Shown: piece after piece, positions 1-11,793 of the stretch
Numbering within the stretch: the first letter of the stretch is position 1
How the letters are laid out: every line of letters starts with the position of its first letter
Source of the DNA: Candidatus Multivorans sp.
GTDB taxonomy: Bacteria > Acidobacteriota > Thermoanaerobaculia > Multivoradales > Multivoraceae
DNA length: 64,000 bases
NCBI GenBank assembly: GCA_965224025.1
Contig: OZ245033.1
Span: forward strand, 288,001 to 352,000
Direction of reading: 5' to 3'
Made by a program: the position numbers and the translations under genes
The notes under the pieces: model-generated
What the model saw: only the letters and a program-made list of their open reading frames with translations
Databases searched by the model: none
Told to the model about the DNA's origin: nothing

Positions 1-847
1 GAGTCTCTACCACCAGGCGCGCAAGAGGACTTACTACGAGGCGCGGCGGCTGTTCGCGGAGGCGATCGAGCTCGATCCGGCGTACGCCCTGGCTCACGCG
101 GCGTCCGCGCACTGCTCCGCGTATCTCTACCTGTTCCACGAACCGAGCGAGGACAACCTCAGACTCGCCGACGAGTCGAGTTCGCGAGCCCTGGAGCTGG
201 CGCCCGAGGTCGCGGAGGCGCACTCGGCGAGGGCGATGACACTCAGCACCAACGGCCGGCTGGAGGAGGCCGAAGTCCACTTCCGGCGCGCCTTGGAACT
301 CGACCCGCTGAGCTTCGAGGCGAACCACAACTTTGCCCGTCACCGCTTCGCCCAGGGCCGGATGGAGGAAGCGGTCACGTTCTTCTTCCGGGCCATCGAA
401 GCCGATCCGACGGCTTACGCCCCCTGCTCCATCTGCACCGCGGCTCTGGCGGCGCTCGGCCGGACTTCTGAAACGGCTCGGCTCCAGGAGCTCACGCAGG
501 CCAGGGTGCAAAGGCGCCTGTTGCGCTACCCCGACGACCAGCGCGCGCTCTACCTGGGCGCGGTCAATCTCGCCCGCGACGGTCGGACGGACGAGGCCCT
601 GGAGTGGGCCGCGCGGGCGGAGGCCCTGGATCCCCAGGATGCCGTGGCGCTCTACAACCTGGCCTGCGTGGCGGCCGTGTGCGGCGATGCGGATGCCGGG
701 CTCCGGTACCTGGAATCGGCAGTGAGGCATGGTTACCCGCACCTGCGCTGGATCGAGAACGATGCCGACTTGGCGGCGCTGCGGGCGGATCCGCGGTTTG
801 GGGAGGTGGTGGCGGGGCTGCGGGGGGCGGCGCGGGCTGCTGGCTGA
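1..847 (+). CDS. TPR-repeat protein, C-terminal part (5' end outside window); resembles TPR tails of TolB-like kinase/adenylate cyclase proteins
   Basis: Frame open from nt 2 (SLYHQARKRTYYEARRLFAEAIELDPAYALAH...); repeated A-x-E-L-D-P TPR motifs; C-terminal 'YNLAC...DADLAALRADPRF' cap. Confidence 0.8.
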   Translation, partial: SLYHQARKRTYYEARRLFAEAIELDPAYALAHAASAHCSAYLYLFHEPSEDNLRLADESSSRALELAPEVAEAHSARAMTLSTNGRLEEAEVHFRRALELDPLSFEANHNFARHRFAQGRMEEAVTFFFRAIEADPTAYAPCSICTAALAALGRTSETARLQELTQARVQRRLLRYPDDQRALYLGAVNLARDGRTDEALEWAARAEALDPQDAVALYNLACVAAVCGDADAGLRYLESAVRHGYPHLRWIENDADLAALRADPRFGEVVAGLRGAARAAG

Positions 848-873
848 CTGTCGGTGCGCCGGCCACTGGATGC

Positions 874-1035
874 GCCGCCCACTGGGCGCGCCGGCCTTCT
901 GGCCGGCTGCCGCCGGAGGCGGCCAAGCGACAGCACCGGCCGCAGGCCGGTTCCATCCGGCAAACGGCCCCAACGAACTTCGGGCTCGCCGCTTCGCGGC
1001 ATCGCGCCCAATGCCGGCCAGAAGGCCGGCGCACC
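874..1035. repeat. REPIN-like inverted pair of REP palindromes; right REP interrupted by IS110 copy 1
   Basis: cactgggcgcgccggccttctggccggc (880-907) is the inverse of gccggccagaaggccggcgcacc (1013-1035) plus cagtg (2746-2750); the IR extends to ccgcccactg/cagtgggcgg across the IS. Confidence 0.85.
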
Positions 1036-1099
1036 TGTACCTTTCTCGGGTGGATTCTGGTGGGTCGTTGAGAGAGGTGGAATCGACCAGTAGCCGTCG

Positions 1100-1196
1100 C
1101 GGCTGCGGTAGCTGTGGGAAACCGGCTTGCCGGTTTTCCAAGGTCCGGCGGGAAACGGTCTGCCGTTTTCCGCGGGACCGGCAGCTTCCGCAGCCG
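1100..1196 (+). ncRNA. Structured three-way-junction element in IS110 left end, function unknown
   Basis: Stems cggctgcgg/ccgcagccg and agctg/cagct enclose hairpins tgggaaaccggc/gccggttttcca and ggtccggcgggaaacgg/ccgttttccgcgggacc; G-U pairs favour the + strand. Confidence 0.5.
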
Positions 1197-1244
1197 GGAC
1201 CGCCGGTCGGTTTCGTTTCCGGCCTGCCGGAGTCACTGAAGGAA

Positions 1245-1401
1245 GGTCGGCAAGCAGCCAGGAGCGACCACCGGCGCACTGTGCTTCGAGCACCTGGCTG
1301 GGACCCGTGCCCTGGCTGCTTCGCCGCGTTGGACGCCCAGTGGAGAGTCAGTGCCTTAGAGCACCAGTACAGGTACGGGCAGGCAACGCGGCATGCCGAC
1401 C
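1245..1401 (+). ncRNA. Bridge RNA of IS110 copy 1 (target-binding and donor-binding loops; exact ends unknown)
   Basis: Stem 1252-1262/1311-1321 encloses CCGGCGCAC (1271-1279, left target) and CTGGG (1298-1302, revcomp of CCCAG). Stem 1323-1331/1384-1392 encloses GTGGAGAGTC (1340-1349, right IS end) and GTACAGG (1367-1373, revcomp of CCTGTAC). Confidence 0.9.
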
Positions 1402-1435
1402 AGGCAACACTACCGCAAGGGAGAAGGAGGACGAG

Positions 1436-2689
1436 ATGACCAGGACGTGGTTCGTCGGCGTGGACTGGGGGTCCGAGACCCACCACGTGTGTGTGCTGGA
1501 TCGGGACGGCAAGGTGAGGGGGGAGCGGGCGTTCGACCACAGCGGCAAGGGACTTGCCGCCATGGCCGACTGGCTCCTTGGACATACCCGACCGACGTCT
1601 CCGGACGAGATCGGCGTCGCCATCGAGGTGCCGCACGGACCGGTGGTCGAGACTCTCCTGGAGCGGGGTTTCGCCGTCCATTCGATCAACCCCAAGCAGC
1701 TCGACCGCTTCAGGGACCGCTTCTCCGTCGCCGGCGCCAAGGATGACCGCCGCGATGCACGGGTGCTCGCCGCCGCGCTTCGCACCGACCCCGAGTGCCT
1801 GAACCGCGTGCAACCATCCGATGCCGCCATCGTCATGCTGCGCGAGGTGTCCCGCGCCCGCAAGCAGTTGGTCAACCAGAAGAACCGCCTGGAGAACCAG
1901 GTCCGCGACCAGCTCTGGCGCTACTACCCGCAGTTTCTCGCCGTGGTCAAGAACGAGGTGTCGGCGCCCTTCGCGCTGGCCTTGTGGCGACTGGCGCCGA
2001 CCCCCGGCAAGGCTCGACGGCTGCGCGAAGCCACGCTCGCCAAACTGCTCAAGGAACACCGCATCCGGCGCCTGACCTCCGCCCAACTGCGCGATCAACT
2101 GCGGGCCGAGCCGATCGCCGTTTCCCCGGACACCGTTAAGGCCGCCGTCGAACACATAGGACTCCTCCGGCCGGTGCTCGACACCGTCTGCCGCCAACTC
2201 GCCGACGCCGACAAGCGGCTGGAGCGGATGACCCGCGCACTCGAGGCCCCGGCCCAACGGGAAAACGACGACGACTCCCCTAAGCCGAGCGACGCCGCCA
2301 TCCTCAGGTCGCTGCCCGGACTCGGCAAGGTCGGCCTCGCCACCCTGCTCTCCGAGGCCGATCAAAGCCTGGGCCGCAGAGACCACGAGGCACTGCGTTG
2401 CCTCTGCGGAGTGGCGCCGGTGACCGTCAAGTCCGGCAAGAAGCTCATCGTCATGCGACGACTCGCCGCCAACGAACACCTCAGCGACGCCGTCTATCAC
2501 TGGGGACGAGTCGCCATCGAGCATGACCCGATCAGCCGCGCCAAGTACGACGCCATGAAAGCCCAGGGAAAGACGCACGGACGCGCCATCAGACAACTCG
2601 TCGACCGACTCCTCGGCGTCGCCTGCGCCATGCTCCGAGACCGAACTCTCTTCGACCCCAACAAGCGATGCCATGCCCAGGTCGCATGA
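1436..2689 (+). CDS. IS110-family DEDD recombinase/transposase (417 aa)
   Basis: AGGAGG RBS before MTRTWFVGVDWG; RuvC-like D (GVDWG), E (AIEVP), DD (KDDRRDA); Tnp-domain serine loop GVAPVTVKSGK. Confidence 0.95.
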   Translation: MTRTWFVGVDWGSETHHVCVLDRDGKVRGERAFDHSGKGLAAMADWLLGHTRPTSPDEIGVAIEVPHGPVVETLLERGFAVHSINPKQLDRFRDRFSVAGAKDDRRDARVLAAALRTDPECLNRVQPSDAAIVMLREVSRARKQLVNQKNRLENQVRDQLWRYYPQFLAVVKNEVSAPFALALWRLAPTPGKARRLREATLAKLLKEHRIRRLTSAQLRDQLRAEPIAVSPDTVKAAVEHIGLLRPVLDTVCRQLADADKRLERMTRALEAPAQRENDDDSPKPSDAAILRSLPGLGKVGLATLLSEADQSLGRRDHEALRCLCGVAPVTVKSGKKLIVMRRLAANEHLSDAVYHWGRVAIEHDPISRAKYDAMKAQGKTHGRAIRQLVDRLLGVACAMLRDRTLFDPNKRCHAQVA

Positions 2690-2724
2690 CCTCCCTGACC
2701 CGCAGCAGCCTCCCCAAAACACAC

Positions 2725-2745
2725 TTGCTAAAGGGTGGAGAGTCC
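2725..2745 (+). promoter_or_regulatory. -35 half (TTGCTA) of an IS circle-junction promoter
   Basis: Joining right end to left end through CC gives TTGCTA-aagggtggagagtcctg (17 nt)-TACCTT; identical in copy 2 (10580-10600). Confidence 0.65.
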
Positions 2746-2823
2746 CAGTGGGCGGAGCTTGCGCACCCTGCCTCGTCACAGGCACACTCACGCTTCACAC
2801 GAACAGCTCGGGGGGCGGAGCGG

Positions 2824-3603
2824 ATGCTGGAACTTGGACTTGAGGGCAGGGTGGCGATCGTCACCGGCGGCAGCGAGGGGATGGGGCTCGCGACGGCGCG
2901 CCGCCTCGTTGGCGAGGGCGCGCGCGTCGCGATCTGCGCGCGGCGGGCGGAGAACCTGGAGCGGGCCGCCGACGAGTTGCGCGCGGCGGGCGGCGGCGAG
3001 GTCTTCGCCCAGCCCGCCGACGTGACCTCCGCGGCCGACGTCGACCGCTTCATCGACGCGGTGACCGCCGAGTTCGGCGGCGTCGACATCCTCGTCAACA
3101 ACGCCGGCGCGTCGGCCGCGCAGGGCCTCGAATCGCTCGACGACGACGCCTGGCTCGCGGACATCCAGCTCAAGGTGATGGGTGCGGTGCGTTTCTGCCG
3201 GGGCGTCGTGCCCTCGATGCGCAAGCGCGGCGGCGGTTCGATCGTCAACGCGACGATCGGGGGCGGCAAGGCGGCGCCGGCGCGGGCGCTGCCGACCAGC
3301 GTCACCCGGGCCGCCGGCATCAACCTGACCAAGTCGCTCGCCAACGAACTGGCCGCCGACAACATCCGCGTCAACACGATCTGCATCGGCCTGATCAAGA
3401 GCGACCAGTGGGTGCGCCGGGCGACGGGCCAGGGCGTCGAGGTCGAGTCGATCTACGAGGCGATGGGCAAGCGCGTCCCCCTGGGCCGCGTCGGCGAGGC
3501 GGAGGAGTACGCCGACCTGATCGCGTTCCTGGTCTCGGAGCGCGGCGCCTACATCACCGGCGCGTCGATCAACCTGGACGGCGGGCTGTGTCCCGTCGTG
3601 TGA
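2824..3603 (+). CDS. Short-chain dehydrogenase/reductase (SDR)
   Basis: VAIVTGGSEGMG, DILVNNAG, NIRVNTICIG, ITGASINLDGG; catalytic YxxxK replaced by TSVTR, as in some atypical SDRs. Confidence 0.9.
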   Translation: MLELGLEGRVAIVTGGSEGMGLATARRLVGEGARVAICARRAENLERAADELRAAGGGEVFAQPADVTSAADVDRFIDAVTAEFGGVDILVNNAGASAAQGLESLDDDAWLADIQLKVMGAVRFCRGVVPSMRKRGGGSIVNATIGGGKAAPARALPTSVTRAAGINLTKSLANELAADNIRVNTICIGLIKSDQWVRRATGQGVEVESIYEAMGKRVPLGRVGEAEEYADLIAFLVSERGAYITGASINLDGGLCPVV

Positions 3604-3634
3604 CCTGCCGGCGGAGCCAAACAAGGAGCCGAAC

Positions 3635-4681
3635 GTGAAAGTAGCGATGCAGAAGAACCCCTTCAATCGCGGGGATCTGATCGAGGCGCAGGGGTTCGAG
3701 ACCGTGGAGGGCGTCTGCCGCAACGAGGACGACCTGGCCGACCTGATGTCCGACGCCGACGGCGCCCTGGTCGGCGTCATGCCGCTGACCTCGCGCTCCG
3801 TGCTCGAGCGGTGCCCGAAGCTCAAGGTGGTCAGCCGGCTGGGGGTCGGCGTCGACTCGATCGACCTCGACGCGGCGACCGAACTCGGCATTTTGGCGAC
3901 CAACGTGCCGGGTTCCAACACGACCGAGGTCGCCGACCACGCGATGGCGCTGATGCTGGCGCTCACCCGGTGTGTGGTCGACGCCGCCGGCACTACCCGC
4001 GAGGGCCGCTGGGGCCATCGGGAATCGATGATCGGGCTCCTCACCCGTGCCCGGCGGATCGCCGGCCATACGGTCGGCATCATCGGCTTCGGCAACATCG
4101 GCCGCGCCTTCGCCACCCGGGCCCGCGGCTTCGGGCCGGCCCGGATCATCGCCGCCGACCCGTACGTCGACCAGGTCACCGCCGACCTCTACGGCGTCCA
4201 GCTCGTGCCGCTCGAGGAGCTGCTGGCCGAAGCCGACTACGTGACGATCCACTGCTCGGCGACCGAGGAAACGCGGCACCTGATCAACGCCGACACGCTC
4301 GCCCTGATGAAGCCCACGGCCCTGCTGGTCAACGCGGCCCGGGGGCCGATCATCGACGGTGCGGCACTGGCCGAAGCGCTCGCCGAAGGCCGGATCGAAG
4401 CCGCCGCGCTCGACGTGACCGAGAAGGAACCGATCGACCCGGACGATCCGCTGCTGAAGCTGCCCAACTGCCTCGTCACCCCGCACATCGCCGGGTTCTC
4501 GCCGGTGTTCCTGGGCGAGTGCCCGATCCGCCAGGCCGAGAACGTGATCCGGGTGCTGACGGGCGAGATGCCGCATGGCATCGCGAACCCCGAGGCGATC
4601 AAGACGATCGCGGTGATGCGGGCGAGCGACCCGGGGCGCTGGGAGGGGGTACCGGACTTCTCGACCGCGCTGGCGTTGTAG
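3635..4681 (+). CDS. D-isomer-specific 2-hydroxyacid dehydrogenase (CtBP/SerA-like)
   Basis: GVGVDSIDL, TNVPG, GIIGFGNIG, VNAARG, ALDV..EP, TPHIAG. Confidence 0.9.
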   Translation: MKVAMQKNPFNRGDLIEAQGFETVEGVCRNEDDLADLMSDADGALVGVMPLTSRSVLERCPKLKVVSRLGVGVDSIDLDAATELGILATNVPGSNTTEVADHAMALMLALTRCVVDAAGTTREGRWGHRESMIGLLTRARRIAGHTVGIIGFGNIGRAFATRARGFGPARIIAADPYVDQVTADLYGVQLVPLEELLAEADYVTIHCSATEETRHLINADTLALMKPTALLVNAARGPIIDGAALAEALAEGRIEAAALDVTEKEPIDPDDPLLKLPNCLVTPHIAGFSPVFLGECPIRQAENVIRVLTGEMPHGIANPEAIKTIAVMRASDPGRWEGVPDFSTALAL

Positions 4682-4713
4682 CAGCCACGCCCCGGAGCCA
4701 ACAGGAGAGAACC

Positions 4714-5742
4714 ATGAAGCGACCACAGGACCACCTCTCCCGCCCTGGCAAAGCGCACGTCCTACTGGGTGCGCCGGCCTTCTGGCCGGCTTCTGAAAGA
4801 ACGCCGCCGCGAAGCGGCGTCCGCGGTCGGCCGCGGCGCGAAGGACAACCAAGCGTTCCGGGTAGCGGATTCCGCCTAAGGGCGGATGCCGGCCAGAAGG
4901 CCGGCGCACCCAGTGGCGGAATGGCGGCTTTCCTCCTGCTCTGCCTCACCTGCCCGCTCCTAGTCGCCGCCTGCGCCGCCCCGCCGCCCGAGGGAGCGGC
5001 CGCTCCCGTCACCCCCGACGACGTCGCCAACTGGCGCGCAATCGACCTCAGCCACTCCTACGGCGACACCACGCTCTACTGGCCGACCGACACCAGGGGC
5101 TTCGACCTCGAGACCCTCGCCGAGGGCCACACGGACGCCGGCTACTTCTACGCCGCCAAACAGTTCGCGACCACCGAGCACGGCGGCACCCACCTCGACG
5201 CCCCCGTCCACTTCGCCGAAGGCGGCGACGACGTCGCCTCGATCCCGCTCGACCGGCTGATCCTGCCCGGCATCGTCGTCGACGTCACCGCACAGGCGGC
5301 CGCCGACCCCGACTACCTGGTGACCGCCGCGGATATCGGCGCCTGGGAAGAGCAGCACGGCCCGGTGCCGGCCGGCGCCGCCGTCCTCATCCGCACCGGC
5401 TGGCCGGACCGCTGGCCCGACGTCCTCGCCTACCTCGGCGACGACACTCCGGGAGACGCGAGCAACCTCCACTTCCCCGGGGTCGGCGAGGACGCAGCCC
5501 GCCTGCTGATCGAAGAGCGGGGCATCGGCATGCTCGGCATCGACACCGCCAGCGTCGACTACGGCCAGTCGACCGACTTCATCGTCCACCAGATCGGCGG
5601 CGCCGCCGGCGTCCCCAACCTGGAGAACGTCGGCGACCTGTCGGAACTGCCGGAGACCGGCTTCCTGCTCGTCGCCCTGCCGATGAAGATCGAGGGCGGC
5701 ACCGGCGCACCGGTGCGGATCGTGGCGCTGGTTCCGCGGTAG
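4714..5742 (+). CDS. Cyclase-family (kynurenine formamidase-like) metallohydrolase lipoprotein; in-frame REPIN in N-terminus (alternative start 4921)
   Basis: HGGTHLDAP metal motif, GIDTASVD, LENV, GGTGAPVRIVA; lipobox LVAAC; AGGAGAG RBS before ATG 4714. Confidence 0.85.
   Translation: MKRPQDHLSRPGKAHVLLGAPAFWPASERTPPRSGVRGRPRREGQPSVPGSGFRLRADAGQKAGAPSGGMAAFLLLCLTCPLLVAACAAPPPEGAAAPVTPDDVANWRAIDLSHSYGDTTLYWPTDTRGFDLETLAEGHTDAGYFYAAKQFATTEHGGTHLDAPVHFAEGGDDVASIPLDRLILPGIVVDVTAQAAADPDYLVTAADIGAWEEQHGPVPAGAAVLIRTGWPDRWPDVLAYLGDDTPGDASNLHFPGVGEDAARLLIEERGIGMLGIDTASVDYGQSTDFIVHQIGGAAGVPNLENVGDLSELPETGFLLVALPMKIEGGTGAPVRIVALVPR
4764..4914. repeat. Intact REPIN-like inverted REP pair (two unoccupied IS110 target sites)
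   Basis: actgggtgcgccggccttctggccggc (4764-4790) and gccggccagaaggccggcgcacccagt (4888-4914) are perfect 27-bp inverted repeats. Confidence 0.9.
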
Positions 5743-5751
5743 GACCGAAGC

Positions 5752-6270
5752 TCAGGTCCCGGCGGGTTCCCCGCCCGACAGCCGGCCCTCGTCATCGATC
5801 AGGACGATCCTGCTCGGTCGATCGGATCCCCACTTCCACAGCACCAGGTTCAGATCGTTCGGCCCCGCGCCGTGAGCGAAGCTCGGGACCACCATCCCCA
5901 CCTGGCCGGCGGCGACCAAACGATCGGCCAGAGCCTGCGAGCGCGGAACAGCCCGGGCCAGCATCTCGGCCTCCCAGGTCGGACACGCCAGGTCCGCTTC
6001 GCTGACGCTCAACTCTGCCCGCTCACGGTCATCTCTCGTGTCGCAGACCGGTTCCGCGTCCACTTCGTAGGCGCAGAGCACGAGCGGCTGCATCGGTCTG
6101 CCCAGGGGTTGCGCTTCGCGGATTGCCGTCAGTGGGCTGAGCGAGGTGTAGAGCGCCGCAACACCGCTCCGGTTGAAGCGTCCGCCGTGCCGGCGCGCGC
6201 CCTCACCCGAAAGCGGCGTCCAGGACCATTGGGAGTTGTGCGCCCGGTAGACGACGCCGCGGAATCGCAC
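5752..6270 (-). CDS. RES-domain toxin (NAD+-degrading family)
   Basis: VYRAH..SGEGARRHGGRFN..ALYTS..TAIRE..SQALAD..VPSFA..NLVLW (R-E-S signature). Confidence 0.9.
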   Translation of the reverse strand: MRFRGVVYRAHNSQWSWTPLSGEGARRHGGRFNRSGVAALYTSLSPLTAIREAQPLGRPMQPLVLCAYEVDAEPVCDTRDDRERAELSVSEADLACPTWEAEMLARAVPRSQALADRLVAAGQVGMVVPSFAHGAGPNDLNLVLWKWGSDRPSRIVLIDDEGRLSGGEPAGT

Positions 6271-6284
6271 TGGCGGAACGCAGC

Positions 6285-6635
6285 CTACGCGTAGCCGCCG
6301 GCCACGATCCGGTCGAGATACGCGTGGACCTGGTCCGCCTGGCCTGCCCGCAGCAGGGAATCCGCCGTGGCGCCGCCAAACCCGGGCAGCGGCTCGGCCC
6401 GAAACCAGGCGTAGGCGGCAAGCGGCGAGCCCGTCTGTTCTTCGACCCGGTTCAGGATCTCCAGCATCTGGCGGAGCCGGACCTGAGTCTTGCGAGCCCG
6501 GACCCGGGACGACCGCGAGAAGGCGTCTCGTCCCAGACCAAGGGTACCGGCGATCTCCGCCTTGGTCGTGCGCAACTCGGATGCGATGAGCACCGGGGAG
6601 AAGACCTGATCTTTGACGAACTCCTGGAAACGCAT
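6285..6635 (-). CDS. Xre/MbcA/ParS-type antitoxin
   Basis: N-terminal HTH-like TTKAEIAGTLGLG; C-terminal AYAWFRAEPLPGFGGATADSLL..GGYA; directly upstream of the RES toxin. Confidence 0.88.
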   Translation of the reverse strand: MRFQEFVKDQVFSPVLIASELRTTKAEIAGTLGLGRDAFSRSSRVRARKTQVRLRQMLEILNRVEEQTGSPLAAYAWFRAEPLPGFGGATADSLLRAGQADQVHAYLDRIVAGGYA

Positions 6636-6653
6636 GACGGCGACCTCGTGGTT

Positions 6654-6675
6654 AGTCACGCAGTATAGCGTGACT
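6654..6675 (-). promoter_or_regulatory. Palindromic operator over the -10 box of the TA operon
   Basis: agtcacgc-agtata-gcgtgact perfect 8-bp IR; the minus-strand loop reads TATACT. Confidence 0.55.
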
Positions 6676-6759
6676 CTGTGTGTCAACCGCAAACCGCCCA
6701 AGTGCTGACTTGCGCTCTGTTCCGCCGAGGTCACGATCCATCTTCCTTGGTCGCAACGG

Positions 6760-7926
6760 TCAGTCCATCGCCGCAAGCTGCGTCATCACCGTCTGCAGCG
6801 GCACGGCGGTCGTCGTCTTCGACACGGGGAACTCCTCGTCTCCCGAGTACACCACCATGCGTCTTGCCGCATTCAGGTCATAGGCGGCGAGTTCGAAGCC
6901 GCGGCTCGTGCGCGGCGCCGACGATCTCTTGACCTCGATCGCCCACAGTTGTTGGTCGGGCAACTGCAGCAGGAGATCGATCTCCGCTCCAGCTCGCGTC
7001 CGGTAGAACCAGGGGATCGTCCCGAAGGGCGCGGAGGCGATCAGATTCTCGATCGCGAAGCCCTCCCAGCTCGGCCCGACGACGGGATGCGAGAGCACGT
7101 CGTCGAAGGTGGCGAGGCCGAGAAGGGTGTGCAGAAGACCGCTGTCCCGGATGTACACCTTCGGCGACTTGACGAGCCGCTTGCCGACGTTCGCGAAGTA
7201 CGGCTGAAGTCTCCGCACGAGCATCAGGTCGACCAGGAGGTCGACATAGCGACCAATCGCCGGCACGGAGACATCCATGCTGCGGGCTAACTGGGAGGCG
7301 TTGAACACGCCGCCCTGGCGGTGGGCGAGCATGGTCCAGAACCTCCTCAGGGTCTCGGCAGGAATGCGGATGCCGAACTGCGGGATGTCCCGTTCGAGGT
7401 AGGTACGGATGAAGCTGAGTCTCCAACGGGCCGCGGCCGCGTCGCTCTTGGCCAGGAACGGATCCGGGAAACCTCCGCGTATCCAGAGCCGGTCCCGTTC
7501 GGAAGCGGTCTCAAGGACGTCGAGTCCGGGAAGCTCGTCGTAGACAACGCGTCCTGCCAACGACTCAGCCGATTGCCTGAGGAGGGTATGGGACGCAGAA
7601 CCGAGAAGCAGGAACTGCCCGATGCGGCGACCGTGGCGGCGACGCCGGTCGATCTGCCCTCGCAGTACCTCGAAAAGGCCCGGCACGCGCTGGATCTCGT
7701 CCAGAATGACGAGCCGTCCAGCCTGATGCTCCAGGTAGGCGGCAGGATTGGCAAGCCGGGCCGCATGGTCCGGGTTCTCCAGGTCGAGGTAGATGCTGTC
7801 GGACACCTGATCCGCTATGGCGCGGGCCAGGGTCGTCTTGCCGATCTGGCGTGGACCCAGGAGCACCACCGCCGGCGCTTCCTCCAGCGCACGGAGGATT
7901 CTCTGCTTGGAACGACGCTCGATCAT
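6760..7926 (-). CDS. ATP-binding protein, AAA_14 plus DUF4143 (C-terminal nuclease-like fold)
   Basis: GPRQIGKT Walker A, ILDEIQ Walker B, SAESLAGR, RGGFP, KSPKVYIRDSG, EIDLL..AIEVK. Confidence 0.92.
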   Translation of the reverse strand: MIERRSKQRILRALEEAPAVVLLGPRQIGKTTLARAIADQVSDSIYLDLENPDHAARLANPAAYLEHQAGRLVILDEIQRVPGLFEVLRGQIDRRRRHGRRIGQFLLLGSASHTLLRQSAESLAGRVVYDELPGLDVLETASERDRLWIRGGFPDPFLAKSDAAAARWRLSFIRTYLERDIPQFGIRIPAETLRRFWTMLAHRQGGVFNASQLARSMDVSVPAIGRYVDLLVDLMLVRRLQPYFANVGKRLVKSPKVYIRDSGLLHTLLGLATFDDVLSHPVVGPSWEGFAIENLIASAPFGTIPWFYRTRAGAEIDLLLQLPDQQLWAIEVKRSSAPRTSRGFELAAYDLNAARRMVVYSGDEEFPVSKTTTAVPLQTVMTQLAAMD

Positions 7927-7933
7927 CCTCGCT

Positions 7934-7961
7934 AATCTAACGGTTACCGTTAAAAAAGCAA
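7934..7961 (-). promoter_or_regulatory. Putative leaderless promoter TTGCTT-N16-TAGATT with palindrome TAACGGT-T-ACCGTTA
   Basis: AT-rich patch in high-GC DNA; -10 box ends 7 nt before ATG 7926; perfect 7-1-7 palindrome at 7938-7952. Confidence 0.45.
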
Positions 7962-8103
7962 GGCTGGCGGCTCCAGCTACGTTGCCCCGCGACCGCCCGG
8001 GCACCGTAGTAGAGTCCGCTATCCCACCCACAACACAACCCAAGGAACCGGCACGCCGGGGCCTACGATGCGCGCAACCGCGTCACACTACGAGGAGACA
8101 CTC

Positions 8104-8835
8104 ATGCGGTACACCACTTCCCTTCTTGCGGCGACAGCGCTACTGGCGCTGGCGGCCATGCCCGCGGCGGCCGGCTCGATGGACGTCGATCTCAAGGCGG
8201 CCGACGGCACGATGCTCAAGGCGACCTACATGTCGCCCGGCAAGCCGGGTCCGGCGATGCTGCTGATCCACCAGTGCAACATGGACCGGAAGTCCTGGTC
8301 GGGCATCGCGTCGCAGTTGGTTGACGCGGGAGTGCATGTGTTGACGATGGACCTGCGCGGCTTCGGCGAGAGCGGCGGCGCCGGCATTCGCGAGGCCGGC
8401 GGGTTCCCGCCGTTCCTGCAGACGGCGACTGGCGACGTGGACATGGCGTTCGACTACCTGAGCAAGCAGGAAGGCGTCGACACGGACCGGATGGCGGCCG
8501 GGGGCGCCAGTTGCGGCGCGATGCTGACGGCCGATCTGGCCGCGCGCCGGCCGGTGAAGGCGCTGATGCTGCTGTCAGGGCCGCCGAGCGCGGCAGCGGT
8601 GGAGAACATGGCCGCGAAGCCCGACCTGGCGGTCTTCGCTGCCGCGGCGACCGGCGACACGATCACGGCCGGCGTCGACAAGCAGCTCAAGGGCGCGGTC
8701 GACGGGTCGAAGCACCCGAACTCAACGGCGAAGATCTACGACGGGACCGAGCACGGCCTGCCGATGTTCGCGAAGAATGCGGATCTGGAGCCGGCGCTGG
8801 TCGGCTGGCTGAAGATGGAGTTGGTGGGGAAGTAG
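8104..8835 (+). CDS. Secreted alpha/beta hydrolase (dienelactone hydrolase-like)
   Basis: Signal peptide, DLRGFGES, GASCG nucleophile elbow, C-terminal EHG; GAGGAG RBS. Confidence 0.85.
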   Translation: MRYTTSLLAATALLALAAMPAAAGSMDVDLKAADGTMLKATYMSPGKPGPAMLLIHQCNMDRKSWSGIASQLVDAGVHVLTMDLRGFGESGGAGIREAGGFPPFLQTATGDVDMAFDYLSKQEGVDTDRMAAGGASCGAMLTADLAARRPVKALMLLSGPPSAAAVENMAAKPDLAVFAAAATGDTITAGVDKQLKGAVDGSKHPNSTAKIYDGTEHGLPMFAKNADLEPALVGWLKMELVGK

Positions 8836-9099
8836 GCGGCTGCCGCTGGTGCGGCGGCGCCCGGAATGCCGGCCAGAAGGCCGGCGCACCTGTACCTTTC
8901 CGGGATGCATTCTGGCGTGTCGTTGAGAGAGGTGGAATGGACCAGTAGCCGTCGTGGCTGCGGTAGCTGTGGGAAACCGGCTTGCCGGTTTTCCAAGGTC
9001 CGGCGGGAAACGGTCTGCCGTTTTCCGCCGGGCCGGCAGCTTCCGCAGCCGAGACCGCCGGTCGGTTGCGTCTCCGGCCTGCCGGAGTCACTGAAGGAA

Positions 9100-9256
9100 A
9101 GTCGGCAAGCAGCCAGGAGCAACCACCGGCGTACTGTGCTTCGAGCACCTGGCTGGGACCCGTGCCCTGGCTGCTTCGCCGCGTTGGACGCCCAGTGGAG
9201 AGTCAGTGCCTTAGAGCACCAGTACAGGTACGGGCAGGCAACGCGGCATGCCGACC
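9100..9256 (+). ncRNA. Bridge RNA of IS110 copy 2
   Basis: Same two-loop architecture as 1245-1401; left target guide is CCGGCGTAC (9126-9134). Confidence 0.9.
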
Positions 9257-9290
9257 AGGCAACACTACCGCAAGGGAGAAGGAGGACGAG

Positions 9291-10544
9291 ATGACCAGGA
9301 CGTGGTTCGTCGGCGTGGACTGGGGGTCCGAGACCCACCACGTGTGTGTGCTGGATCGGGACGGCAAGGTGAGGGGGGAGCGGGCGTTCGACCACAGCGG
9401 CAAGGGACTTGCCGCCATGGCCGACTGGCTCCTTGGACATACCCGACCGACGTCTCCGGACGAGATCGGCGTCGCCATCGAGGTGCCGCACGGACCGGTG
9501 GTCGAGACTCTCCTGGAGCGGGGCTTCGCCGTGCATTCGATCAACCCCAAGCAGCTCGACCGCTTCAGGGACCGCTTCTCCGTCGCCGGCGCCAAGGATG
9601 ACCGCCGCGATGCACGGGCGCTCGCCGCCGCGCTTCGCACCGACCCCGAGTGCCTGAACCGCGTGCAACCATCCGATGCAGCCATCGTGATGCTGCGCGA
9701 GGTGTCCCGCGGCCGCAAGCAGTTGGTCGGCCAGAAGAACCGCCTGGAGAACCAGGTCCGCGACCAGCTCTGGCGCTACTACCCGCAGTTTCTCGCCGTG
9801 GTCAAGAACGAGGTGTCGGCGCCCTTCGCGCTGGCCTTGTGGCGACTGGCGCCGACCCCCGACAAGGCTCGACGGCTGCGCGAAGACACGCTCGCCAAAC
9901 TGCTCAAGGAACACCGCATCCGGCGCCTGACTGCCGCCCAACTGCGCGATCAACTGCGGGCCGAGCCGATCGCCGTTTCCCCGGACACCGTTAAGGCCGC
10001 CGTCGAACACATAGGACTCCTCCGGCCGGTGCTCGACACCGTCTGCCGCCAACTCGCCGACGCCGAAAGGCGGCTGGAGCGGATGACCCGCGCACTCGAA
10101 GCCGACCTCTCCCGGGAAAACGACGACGACACGCCCAAGCCGAGCGACGCCGCCATCCTCAGGTCGCTGCCCGGACTCGGCAAGGTCGGCCTCGCCACCC
10201 TGCTCTCCGAGGCCGATCAAAGCCTGGGCCGCAGAGACTACGAGGCACTGCGTTGCCTCTGCGGAGTGGCGCCGGTGACCGTCAAGTCCGGCAAGAAGCT
10301 CATCGTCATGCGACGACTCGCCGCCAACGAACACCTCAGCGACGCCGTCTATCACTGGGGACGAGTCGCCATCCAGCACGACCCGATCAGCCGCGCCAAG
10401 TACGACGCCATGAAAGCCGAAGGCAAGACACACGGACGAGCCATCAGACAACTCGTCGATCGACTCCTCGGCGTCGCCTGCGCCATGCTCCGAGACCGCA
10501 CTCTCTTCGACCCCAACAAGAGAAGCCATGCCCAGGTCGCATGA
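9291..10544 (+). CDS. IS110-family DEDD recombinase/transposase (417 aa), copy 2
   Basis: Intact DEDD and Ser motifs; substitutions versus copy 1 are concentrated in the linker (EADLSRENDDDTPK vs EAPAQRENDDDSPK). Confidence 0.95.
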   Translation: MTRTWFVGVDWGSETHHVCVLDRDGKVRGERAFDHSGKGLAAMADWLLGHTRPTSPDEIGVAIEVPHGPVVETLLERGFAVHSINPKQLDRFRDRFSVAGAKDDRRDARALAAALRTDPECLNRVQPSDAAIVMLREVSRGRKQLVGQKNRLENQVRDQLWRYYPQFLAVVKNEVSAPFALALWRLAPTPDKARRLREDTLAKLLKEHRIRRLTAAQLRDQLRAEPIAVSPDTVKAAVEHIGLLRPVLDTVCRQLADAERRLERMTRALEADLSRENDDDTPKPSDAAILRSLPGLGKVGLATLLSEADQSLGRRDYEALRCLCGVAPVTVKSGKKLIVMRRLAANEHLSDAVYHWGRVAIQHDPISRAKYDAMKAEGKTHGRAIRQLVDRLLGVACAMLRDRTLFDPNKRSHAQVA

Positions 10545-10600
10545 CCTCCCTGACCCGCAGCAGCCTCCCCAAAACACACTTGCTAAAGGGTGGAGAGTCC

Positions 10601-10675
10601 CAGTGCCGGAATGCCGGCCGGAAGGCCGGCGCACCCAGTGCCGGAATGCCGGCCGGAATGCCGGCGTACCCAGTG
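10601..10675 (+). repeat. Tandem 35-bp REP units (unit 1 = 8861-8890 plus 10601-10605, unit 2 = 10606-10640, unit 3 = 10641-10675)
   Basis: ccggaatgccggccRgaaKgccggcgYacccagtg repeated three times once the IS is removed. Confidence 0.85.
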
Positions 10676-10677
10676 AT

Positions 10678-11793
10678 CTACCGCAGTTCGGCGGTCTTGT
10701 TGCGCTCGATCAGGTCGAAGTCGATCTCGACTCCGAGGCCCGGGGCCATCGGGGCGTGGACGTAGCCCTCTGAATCGACCTCGATGTCTTCGACGAGGCC
10801 GTACTTCTGCGCGGCCGCCGGCAGCAGGACCTCGAACCACTCGCAGTTGCGGATCGCGGCGCTGATGTGCAGGTGGGCGACGTTGTTCAGCGAGTTGCCG
10901 CCGTGGTGGATCTCGAAGTTCATCCCGAAGCCCTCGGCCAGGTGGGCCGCCTTGAGGCAGCCGGTGATGCCGCCCTTGAGCGCGACGTCGCCGCGCAGGT
11001 AGTCGGTCGCCTGGTTGTAGATCCACGGCGCGAACGAGTCGTACCAGGCGCCGGGGAACTCGGTCGCCATGATCGGAATGCGAAGCTGCTGGCGCAGCTT
11101 CGTGTAGTTGTAGATGTCCTGGTCGCCCAGGGGATCCTCGTACCACTCGAAGTCGAGATCCTCGATCAGCTTGCCGACCCGTAGCGCCGAGGGGTAGTCG
11201 TAGCCCCAGGTCGAATCGAGCATCAACGGGAAACCGTCGCCGACCGCCTCGCGGACGGCCTTGCAGATCCGCATGTCGTCCCGCCAGACGCGGAACGGGT
11301 GGATCTTGTAGCCCTGCCAGCCCGCGGCCTGGTACGACTTGGCCTGCTCGACGTAGGCCTCGACATCAGGCTGCTGCTCGGAGCTGGCGTACGCGGGCAG
11401 CTTCTCCCGGTACGTCCCGAGCAGCCGGTGAACAGGCTCCCCCGCCGCCTTGCCGGCGATGTCCCAGAGCGCCACGTCGACGGCGCCGACCACCCAGGGC
11501 TGGACGACCAGCCGCCGCTCCAGCATCTCCTGGTAGAGCTGCTCACGGGCCAGCGGGTCGCGGCCCATCACGATCGGTTTGAGCATCCGCAGCAGGGTCC
11601 GTGCGGTCATGCTCGTCCCCATGCCGAGGAACGAATGGCCCTCGACTCCGTCGTCGGTACGGATCGTCACCAGGCCGAGTTCGCCTGTGCGGTTCGGCTG
11701 GCCGGCCGGGTCGAACGGCCCGCGTCCCAGGTAGGAGTGCGGCGGAATGTCGTTCCAGGCGAAGAGGGTGATGCTGAGGTCGTCGATCTTCAT
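10678..11793 (-). CDS. Mandelate racemase/muconate lactonizing enzyme family (enolase superfamily)
   Basis: GAVDVALWDIAGKAAG, YKIHP, LMLDS, WYEDP, IMATE, FEIHHG, APGLGVEID. Confidence 0.92.
   Translation of the reverse strand: MKIDDLSITLFAWNDIPPHSYLGRGPFDPAGQPNRTGELGLVTIRTDDGVEGHSFLGMGTSMTARTLLRMLKPIVMGRDPLAREQLYQEMLERRLVVQPWVVGAVDVALWDIAGKAAGEPVHRLLGTYREKLPAYASSEQQPDVEAYVEQAKSYQAAGWQGYKIHPFRVWRDDMRICKAVREAVGDGFPLMLDSTWGYDYPSALRVGKLIEDLDFEWYEDPLGDQDIYNYTKLRQQLRIPIMATEFPGAWYDSFAPWIYNQATDYLRGDVALKGGITGCLKAAHLAEGFGMNFEIHHGGNSLNNVAHLHISAAIRNCEWFEVLLPAAAQKYGLVEDIEVDSEGYVHAPMAPGLGVEIDFDLIERNKTAELR

Follow-up and report, generated by a model that had tools for sequence, protein, structure and literature searches.

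A predicted bridge RNA and the target site of an IS110-group insertion sequence in a REP-like repeat of Candidatus Multivorans

The window considered in this study is a stretch of 64,000 nucleotides from Candidatus Multivorans sp. (Acidobacteriota; assembly GCA_965224025.1, contig OZ245033.1, positions 288,001 to 352,000 of the forward strand), and it carries two copies of one insertion sequence (IS) of the IS110 group. Copy 1 lies at 1036..2745 and copy 2 at 8891..10600, both on the + strand. Their ends were set by comparing all copies in the genome; each measures 1710 bp when the CC shared by its junctions is counted once, and the two are 97% identical to each other by blastn. Copy 1 has left-end variant A, with the C allele of the left target guide (LTG) of the predicted bridge RNA described below, and copy 2 has left-end variant B, with the U allele. 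The host genome (G000 in the coordinates given below) comprises 5.14 Mb in 3 contigs and has 67.6% GC.

Each copy contains a recombinase/transposase gene encoding 417 aa, at 1436..2689 (+) in copy 1 and at 9291..10544 (+) in copy 2. Both proteins match two Pfam families: DEDD_Tnp_IS110 (PF01548), the N-terminal DEDD RuvC-like domain, with the full profile covered (1-155 of 155; E 9.6e-35 for copy 1 and 2e-33), and Transposase_20 (PF02371), the C-terminal Tnp domain (E 2.4e-12 for copy 1). This agrees with the IS110-family identity proposed in an earlier reading of the same DNA that used no database searches (the sequence-only reading). The only PDB matches of the 417-aa protein were the transposases of IS621 (8wt6, E 7.6e-12) and ISCro4 (E 4.3e-10). 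A Ser-Gly pair in the query aligns with the ESG of the IS621 transposase, and we take this serine to be the catalytic one. The non-coding left end takes up 400 nt upstream of the gene; downstream of the stop codon, only 56 nt remain.

Insertion at one position of a repeat tail

The two copies have identical junctions, as the sequence-only reading had it. In each, the left flank ends in ...GCCGGCGCACC, the element starts with TGTACC and ends with GGAGAGTCC, and the right flank begins with CAGTG; for copy 1, the left flank ends with GGCGCACC at 1035 and the right flank begins at 2746. There are no terminal inverted repeats and no target duplication, and each junction has a single CC, as does each empty site. 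A blastn search of the genome with copy 1 returned 12 full-length copies at 96.8-100% identity and two further copies without ~80-90 nt of the left end, for a total of 14 complete copies, together with several fragments of the element. The sequence GCCGGCG[C/T]ACC precedes 17 of 17 left junctions genome-wide (16 ends found by blastn and one remnant found by pattern; C in 12 and T in 5), and the sequence next to each of the 15 right junctions is C[A/G]G[T/C] (CAGT in 9, CAGC in 4 and CGGT in 2). Insertion is sequence-specific at every one of these junctions. None lies at an unrelated sequence; copies at unrelated sequences were what the sequence-only reading had named as speaking against it. 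Uninterrupted sites of the form GCCGGCG[CT]ACCC[AG]G[CT] number 45 in the genome, giving a tally of 17 occupied and 45 empty sites. Because GCCGGCGCACCCAGT occurs 35 times in the genome as against 0.1 expected from composition, and because the flanks are uniform at all junctions, chance can be excluded.

The element targets the 3' tail of a hairpin repeat that occurs across the genus and resembles repetitive extragenic palindromic (REP) sequences; only one subfamily of the repeat is used. The target occupied by copy 1 has its left half at 1011..1035 (+), where a REP hairpin, GCCGGCC-AGAA-GGCCGGC, is followed by the left target and the core, and the right half continues from 2746 (CAGTGGG). Excision of copy 1 in silico yields a REP arm identical at 29 of 30 bases to an inverted partner arm at 878..908 (-), whose tail, GCGCGCC, has one mismatch to the target; copy 1 splits this pair, which is like a REPIN (a doublet of inverted REPs). 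For copy 2, the left half of the target, at 8866..8890 (+), belongs to unit 1 of a 35-bp tandem REP array, of which the rest of unit 1 and units 2-3 lie at 10601..10675 (+), and excision in silico restores the first of the three 35-bp units. Both restorations had been described in the sequence-only reading, as had three of the four empty targets in the window. Two of these lie in an intact inverted REP pair at 4761..4916, which spans both orientations (4764-4778 on the - strand and 4900-4914 on the + strand), and the third in the tandem array at 10625-10639 (+, C type); the fourth, a T variant, is at 10660-10674 (+) in the same array. The repeat is arranged singly, as inverted pairs (878-908 with 1011-1035, the arm resuming at 2746; 4761-4916) and in tandem arrays, and its extragenic position was checked at the window loci.

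This genome contains 122 occurrences of the degenerate tail GNCNGCGCACCCAG, compared with 4 of the reversed control. The tail is present in 28-339 copies in 21 of 24 other genomes of the genus, and in 2-11 copies in 16 genomes of other genera of the order. The element itself was found in 5 of 25 genus genomes, this one included, so the repeat is far more widespread than the element. A search of the genome (completeness 100%) with PF01797 found no Y1 transposase of the type associated with REPs (REP-associated tyrosine transposase, RAYT), where 6 of 14 control genomes matched, and a divergent RAYT may escape this profile. For this reason we call the repeat REP-like rather than a demonstrated REP/RAYT system. 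The claim of REP targeting therefore stands with regard to one defined position of a hairpin repeat genome-wide, and is reduced to "REP-like" with regard to the nature of that repeat. A second repeat family, consisting of the hairpin TGCGCCCG-TCAT-CGGGCGCA followed by CGGATGGCAC, shares the target tail; its sites are at G000:C1: 229497, 1579351, 1605775, 2662230, 2681656 and 4569890, and one copy is occupied by the IS.

The predicted bridge RNA and its covariation with targets

The 400-nt left end is predicted to encode a two-loop bridge RNA whose guides would pair with target and donor. Four such guides, defined with the core included, are described in Durrant 2024, and a candidate for each can be placed in the left end. 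In copy 1, the predicted target-binding loop (1253..1320, +) is identified by complementarity to the target, by its fold and by covariation in relatives. It consists of a basal stem (1253-1262/1311-1320), the LTG CCGGCGCAC(U) at 1271-1280, a distal hairpin (1281-1293) and the right target guide (RTG) GGCUGGG at 1296-1302. The predicted donor-binding loop (1323..1392, +), identified by matches to the end of the right end and the start of the left end, consists of a basal stem (1323-1331/1384-1392), the left donor guide (LDG) GUGGAGAGUC at 1340-1349, a distal hairpin (1351-1364) and the right donor guide (RDG) GUACAGG at 1367-1373. The predicted loops of copy 2 lie at 9108..9247 (+), that is, at the copy 1 coordinates plus 7855. 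One LTG base is polymorphic, being T at 9132 in copy 2 as against C at 1277 in copy 1. Contigs of the public runs X7, X8 and X9 read T at window position 1277, the same base that is polymorphic among the LTGs of the genome copies.

At the DNA level, the LTG, CCGGCG[C/T]AC(T), has the same sequence as the left target (top strand) with the first core base added, and the RTG, GGCTGGG, is the reverse complement of CC-CAGCC. On the donor side, the LDG, GTGGAGAGTC, reads the same as the element's right end extended by the first core base, and the RDG, GTACAGG, is the reverse complement of CC-TGTAC. The four guides stand in the left end in the order and sense known from IS621, and all four in order were found in 0 of 200,000 shuffles of the left end. 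In the predicted fold there are two arms, both made up of a basal stem, an internal loop with guides on its two sides and a GUGC...GCAC distal hairpin. This fold is conserved: an RNAalifold consensus of 22 related left ends contains 33 pairs, of which 11 show compensatory changes, and none of these pairs involves the guide segments. We propose that the element always lies at the same base of the repeat because its guide RNA matches that sequence.

Transcription, circle formation and catalysis may be envisaged by analogy with the IS110 family. Transcription of the left end (~400 nt) would yield an RNA containing two internal loops. Of these, the target-binding loop would carry CCGGCG[C/U]AC(U), and in the donor-binding loop GUGGAGAGUC would match the right end plus core and GUACAGG the core plus left end. 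An RNA-held DEDD/Ser recombinase would then join the junction of the excised circle to the target at their common CC, and recombination at this CC would leave no duplication.

Diverged elements with 55-73% protein identity were found in 4 of 24 other genus genomes sampled. In one of them (G010), the same left target and junction serve all 10 copies. In another (G013), the guide UCGGCGCAC (DNA TCGGCGCAC) goes with the target GTCGGCGCACC, and a degraded copy (G016c) has the guides GUCCGCGCACC and UCUCUGGG (DNA: GTCCGCGCACC and TCTCTGGG) and the target GTCCGCGCACC...CAGAGA. The donor side varies in the same manner: the LDG changes together with the right end, from GGAGAGU to GGGGAGU where the right end is GGGGAGTCC (G010 and G013). 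Two further elements, G016a and G016b (contig C3, 59% identity), were left out because their ends are unresolved.

A scan of public genomes gave 80 related loci, in Candidatus Multivorans, Thermoanaerobaculia, Vicinamibacterales, one Azospirillum and two other metagenome-assembled genomes. The nearest named relatives are of Acidobacteriota (Candidatus Multivorans, Thermoanaerobaculia and Vicinamibacterales), and the match to IS621 is remote, in keeping with the earlier claim of a lineage distant from E. coli. The left junction CC/TGTACC is kept in 75 of the 80 loci and the right end GGTGG[GA][GA]AGTCC/ was found in 64 (slashes mark the junctions), with many different targets among them; relatives at 55-59% protein identity follow the same junction logic with other targets. 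Covariation was assessed in the 72 of 80 loci that could be parsed, representing 18 guide classes (L056-L058, L069, L070, L077, L091 and L099 were left out). The contiguous match between LTG and left target had a median of 8 for cognate pairs (n=46) versus 2 for non-cognate pairs (n=770), and that between RTG and right target a median of 6.5 (n=40) versus 2 (n=660), figures that overstate the number of events because kin are non-independent. Guides and targets change together, for example GAAAAGG with CC-TTTTC, GGGAGGG with CC-CTCCC and CAAATGG with CC-ATTTG, and at least six unrelated targets are perfectly matched over 7 nt. At two loci (L076 and, in an Azospirillum canadense record, L083), a left-end start, TGTAC..., comes immediately after the right end GGGGAGTCC, an arrangement with a tandem or junction-like look.

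Site choice and competing explanations

The element discriminates between closely similar sites. When GCGCACC is preceded by GCCG, 12 sites are occupied and 36 empty, whereas with any other four bases none is occupied and 145 are empty (Fisher 1.8e-8). The sister subfamilies, which differ by 1-2 bases from the used subfamily, are never used. By subfamily, the empty counts in this genome are 35 for GCCGGCGCA-CC-CAGT, the only kind that the element uses, 34 for GTCCGCGCA-CC-CAGA, 24 for GCCCGCGCA-CC-CAGA and 14 for GGCAGCGCG-CC-CAGT, plus others. Among the 14 complete copies, the LTG has C in 9 and U in 5, and the other three guides are invariant. Sites of the type GCGTA-CC-CAGC, which would be fully Watson-Crick paired with the U allele and the G-containing RTG, are occupied in 4 of 4 cases, compared with 11 of 56 for the other classes (Fisher 0.0028). 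As a separate observation, the sister tail GTCCGCGCA-CC-CAGA, empty at 34 of 34 sites here, is exactly matched by the guides of the degraded G016c element (L025) of a sister species.

We consider it about 90% probable that this is an ordinary, apparently active IS110-group insertion sequence with a bridge RNA, in an Acidobacteriota genome of the genus of Candidatus Multivorans. Several results weigh against this conclusion. The guide match is imperfect at most sites: pairing at the C/CAGT class, which accounts for the largest number of occupied sites (9), requires a G.T wobble in the RTG and, with the U allele of the LTG, a U.G wobble too, and the second core base has no Watson-Crick match in the LTG (U) or the LDG (A). 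Two T-type left targets hold a copy whose own LTG has C. Kinship among the related loci, as noted, inflates the covariation counts. A direct sign of the RNA was sought in Rfam (window 700-11000, E <= 1), with no match, which means that no curated family covers the left-end RNA, and a strict sigma-70 scan of the linear window (900-2900) returned 0 promoters. Finally, the circle-junction 15-mer is absent from the assembly, and the contigs of 4 public runs (window 1-8850; assembled, mostly fragmentary and metagenomic) contain no clean empty allele or circle junction, although the only public runs that contain the sequence are assembled contigs, which are incapable of showing rare junctions, and the joints in these, which fall in or near repeats, were not used.

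A copy-by-copy correspondence between guide and site was considered and rejected: the 14 copies include 2 with a T guide at a T site, 3 with a T guide at a C site and 2 with a C guide at a T site. We attribute this mismatch to an RNA and enzyme acting in trans, the only way to explain the two C guides at T sites; action in trans has been shown for IS621 (Durrant 2024).

The most resilient of the other explanations is that the REP hairpin is itself recognised as a DNA structure, by the recombinase protein alone or mainly, with RNA complementarity being secondary; we consider this unlikely. A hairpin is found directly 5' of the target at 14 of 17 occupied sites, and a preprint on ISPpu10 describes a target stem-loop that adds specificity. 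However, the hairpin is missing at the other 3 occupied sites, and occupancy shows no significant dependence on it (14/45 with a hairpin versus 3/17 without; Fisher p = 0.35). Subfamilies with equally good hairpins but 1-2 changed tail bases are never used, and the guides covary with the targets. The hairpin may play a contributory role in target recognition.

It is far less probable that the shared flanks reflect duplication of a larger segment, or a hairpin that travels as part of the element, with no choice of target. Four copies do share an identical 24-nt left flank (ATGCCGGCCGGAGGCCGGCGTACC), but the flanks beyond the repeat differ in all copies, and the left flanks vary just as empty repeats do (loops AGAA, GGGGA and GGAG). 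The left and right halves are contiguous in the 45 uninterrupted sites, and the relatives at 55-59% protein identity keep the junction logic at other targets. A travelling hairpin should always be identical beside the element and never occur alone; the data contradict this. The last explanation, that insertion is loosely specific and the uniform junctions represent survival of harmless intergenic insertions, would account for the intergenic position of both window copies, but is barely credible, since selection could not bring all 17 junctions to exactly the same base of one 15-nt motif and does not explain why 145 equally extragenic sister-repeat sites are unused.

A programmed target present in tens to hundreds of copies across the genus would offer many equivalent sites, most of them probably harmless and intergenic. 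In the window, copy 1 lies between a gene for a tetratricopeptide repeat (TPR) protein and a short-chain dehydrogenase gene, and copy 2 has a hydrolase gene on one side and a mandelate-racemase-type gene on the other, both with their 3' ends towards it. The intergenic position of these two copies, the ones checked for it, fits the proposed multi-copy safe harbour. The sequence-only reading had also suggested that the empty sites could drive rearrangements, a possibility for which the analysis yielded no evidence. The insertions show no clustering beyond site density (P = 0.50, 0.16 and 0.16 at 10, 30 and 100 kb), and the joints in the public-run contigs were uninformative.

Relation to known systems and further observations

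The element shares much with IS621 of E. coli, as described in Durrant 2024 and Hiraizumi 2024: the same two protein domains, a target loop followed by a donor loop in a left-end RNA (predicted here), the same strand rules for the four guides, a dinucleotide core common to target and donor, insertion into the tail of REP hairpins, and a -35 box in the right end as for a junction promoter. It differs in that the protein is distant (E 7.6e-12, over two short stretches), the core is CC rather than CT, the left end is 400 nt long with a ~190-nt 5' hairpin whereas the IS621 RNA has 177 nt, the RTG match spans 6-7 nt rather than 4, and the host is a high-GC acidobacterium. ISPpu9 and ISPpu10 of Pseudomonas putida, ISPa11, ISPsy8 and ISRm19/22 are likewise reported as multi-copy ISs at one position of a host REP (Tobes and Pareja 2006), and the ISPpu10 target is described as having, like the target here, a GC-rich stem-loop 5' of the paired bases. 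The ISPpu9/ISPpu10 group has other hosts and other REP sequences, and hairpin dependence is non-significant here; moreover, the small RNA gene reported for ISPpu9 is downstream of the transposase gene, whereas the predicted RNA here is upstream.

REP targeting by IS110-family elements is therefore known (Tobes and Pareja 2006; Choi 2003, via Durrant 2024; and the reports on ISPpu9, ISPpu10 and ISPa11), and the bridge-RNA mechanism is established (Durrant 2024). A literature listing on IS110 in Acidobacteria showed a 2012 survey of mobile elements in the phylum and nothing on REP targeting there. Given what is known for IS621, ISPpu9/10 and ISPa11, this element adds an Acidobacteriota example to known behaviour. 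It is a clear natural case of targeting by a bridge RNA, drawn from a high-GC phylum that has been little studied, and leaves knowledge of the family unchanged. Its value lies rather in a natural specificity data set within one genome, with 17 occupied sites, 45 empty ones and 145 near-misses that are never used, from which wobble tolerance and discrimination of 1-2 bases can be read. There are also several sister elements whose guides have tracked different REP variants, and the group can supply diverged recombinase/RNA pairs whose core is CC.

The repeat itself resembles the REP/REPIN-RAYT systems in consisting of short, GC-rich extragenic hairpins that occur singly, as inverted pairs ~100 bp apart and in tandem, in tens to hundreds of genus-specific copies, and differs from them in that the PF01797 search found no Y1 (RAYT-type) transposase here. 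Elements of the IS1111 group have their non-coding RNA region downstream of the gene and have subterminal inverted repeats, unlike the arrangement described here, in which the long non-coding end precedes the gene and 56 nt follow it. Members of that group with a seekRNA nonetheless resemble this element in having a DEDD transposase and RNA-guided site choice (Siddiquee 2024).

Upstream of the two predicted loops, the fold of the whole left end (z = -8.9) contains a long 5' hairpin (1045..1240, +) with a conserved three-way-junction module at ~1101-1195. The module (1101-1195 in copy 1 and 8956-9050 in copy 2) has an outer stem, GGCUGCGG.AGCUG/CAGCUUCCGCAGCC, and two hairpins that each end in UUUUCC, and no other part of the left end is as well conserved among the genus relatives. 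Matches to it in the genome number 18, of which 13 are in this IS110 element and 5 lie just inside the end of an IS21-family element with IstB and rve domains (G000:C1 near 1302006, 2474190, 3408885, 3672677 and 4048816). Elsewhere in the genome, 2 copies are complete except for a deletion of the module, and the Vicinamibacterales relatives lack it. In appearance it resembles a terminator or insulator.

The right end contains a -35-like box, TTGCTA, at 2725..2730 (+), 15 nt from the end of the IS. Together with TACCTT at 1038-1043 in the left end, it would form a promoter with 17-nt spacing across a circle junction. Among the 80 related loci, TTG[AC]NN is present at the same offset in 64 of the 64 right ends found, and TACC[TCG]T in 75 of 80 left ends. 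These conserved boxes fit the junction promoter described for the family, and a corresponding function may be supposed from Durrant 2024.

A wider proposal can be put forward tentatively, and we regard it as doubtful as a whole. IS110 lineages in the genus may have split the REP subfamilies among them by retuning 1-2 guide bases, and the C/U polymorphism of the LTG, together with the wobble G of the RTG, may give a graded affinity for sites, with the four all-Watson-Crick sites saturated and the wobble sites filled to about one-fifth. In addition, the 5' stem might have acquired a structured module of ~95-120 nt that it shares with the IS21 end, a portable RNA or DNA module swapped between unrelated insertion sequences, whose function (insulation from outside transcription, or RNA stability) would fall outside the described bridge RNA.

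Some of the copies in this genome depart from the standard form. In 4 of the 14 complete copies (G000:C1: 534739, 598851, 2020657 and 3855042), the longest open reading frame (ORF) encodes 432-436 aa rather than 417, and these match the 417-aa query over residues 1-409 or 17-417 only; from these lengths and partial matches, some copies are probably frameshifted. One copy is split into nt 1-551 and 554-1710, with the halves ~15 kb apart across the ends of contig C1 (G000:C1:13083-13635 and 5044243-5045399), so that either something was inserted into this copy or the ends of the contig lie inside a rearranged region. Three orphan pieces of the left end were also found. The first (G000:C1:4322367-4322573) corresponds to nt 158-365 and retains most of the predicted bridge RNA, with changes beside the RTG and in the RDG; the second (G000:C1:5037673-5037772) corresponds to nt 1-68 plus 140-170; and the third, at G000:C1:550060, is a 14-nt stump with the REP target still adjoining. 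The same genome also contains a second IS110-like family of 13 copies (G000:C1:111845-112279 and 12 others), which is 31% identical over the N-terminal domain.

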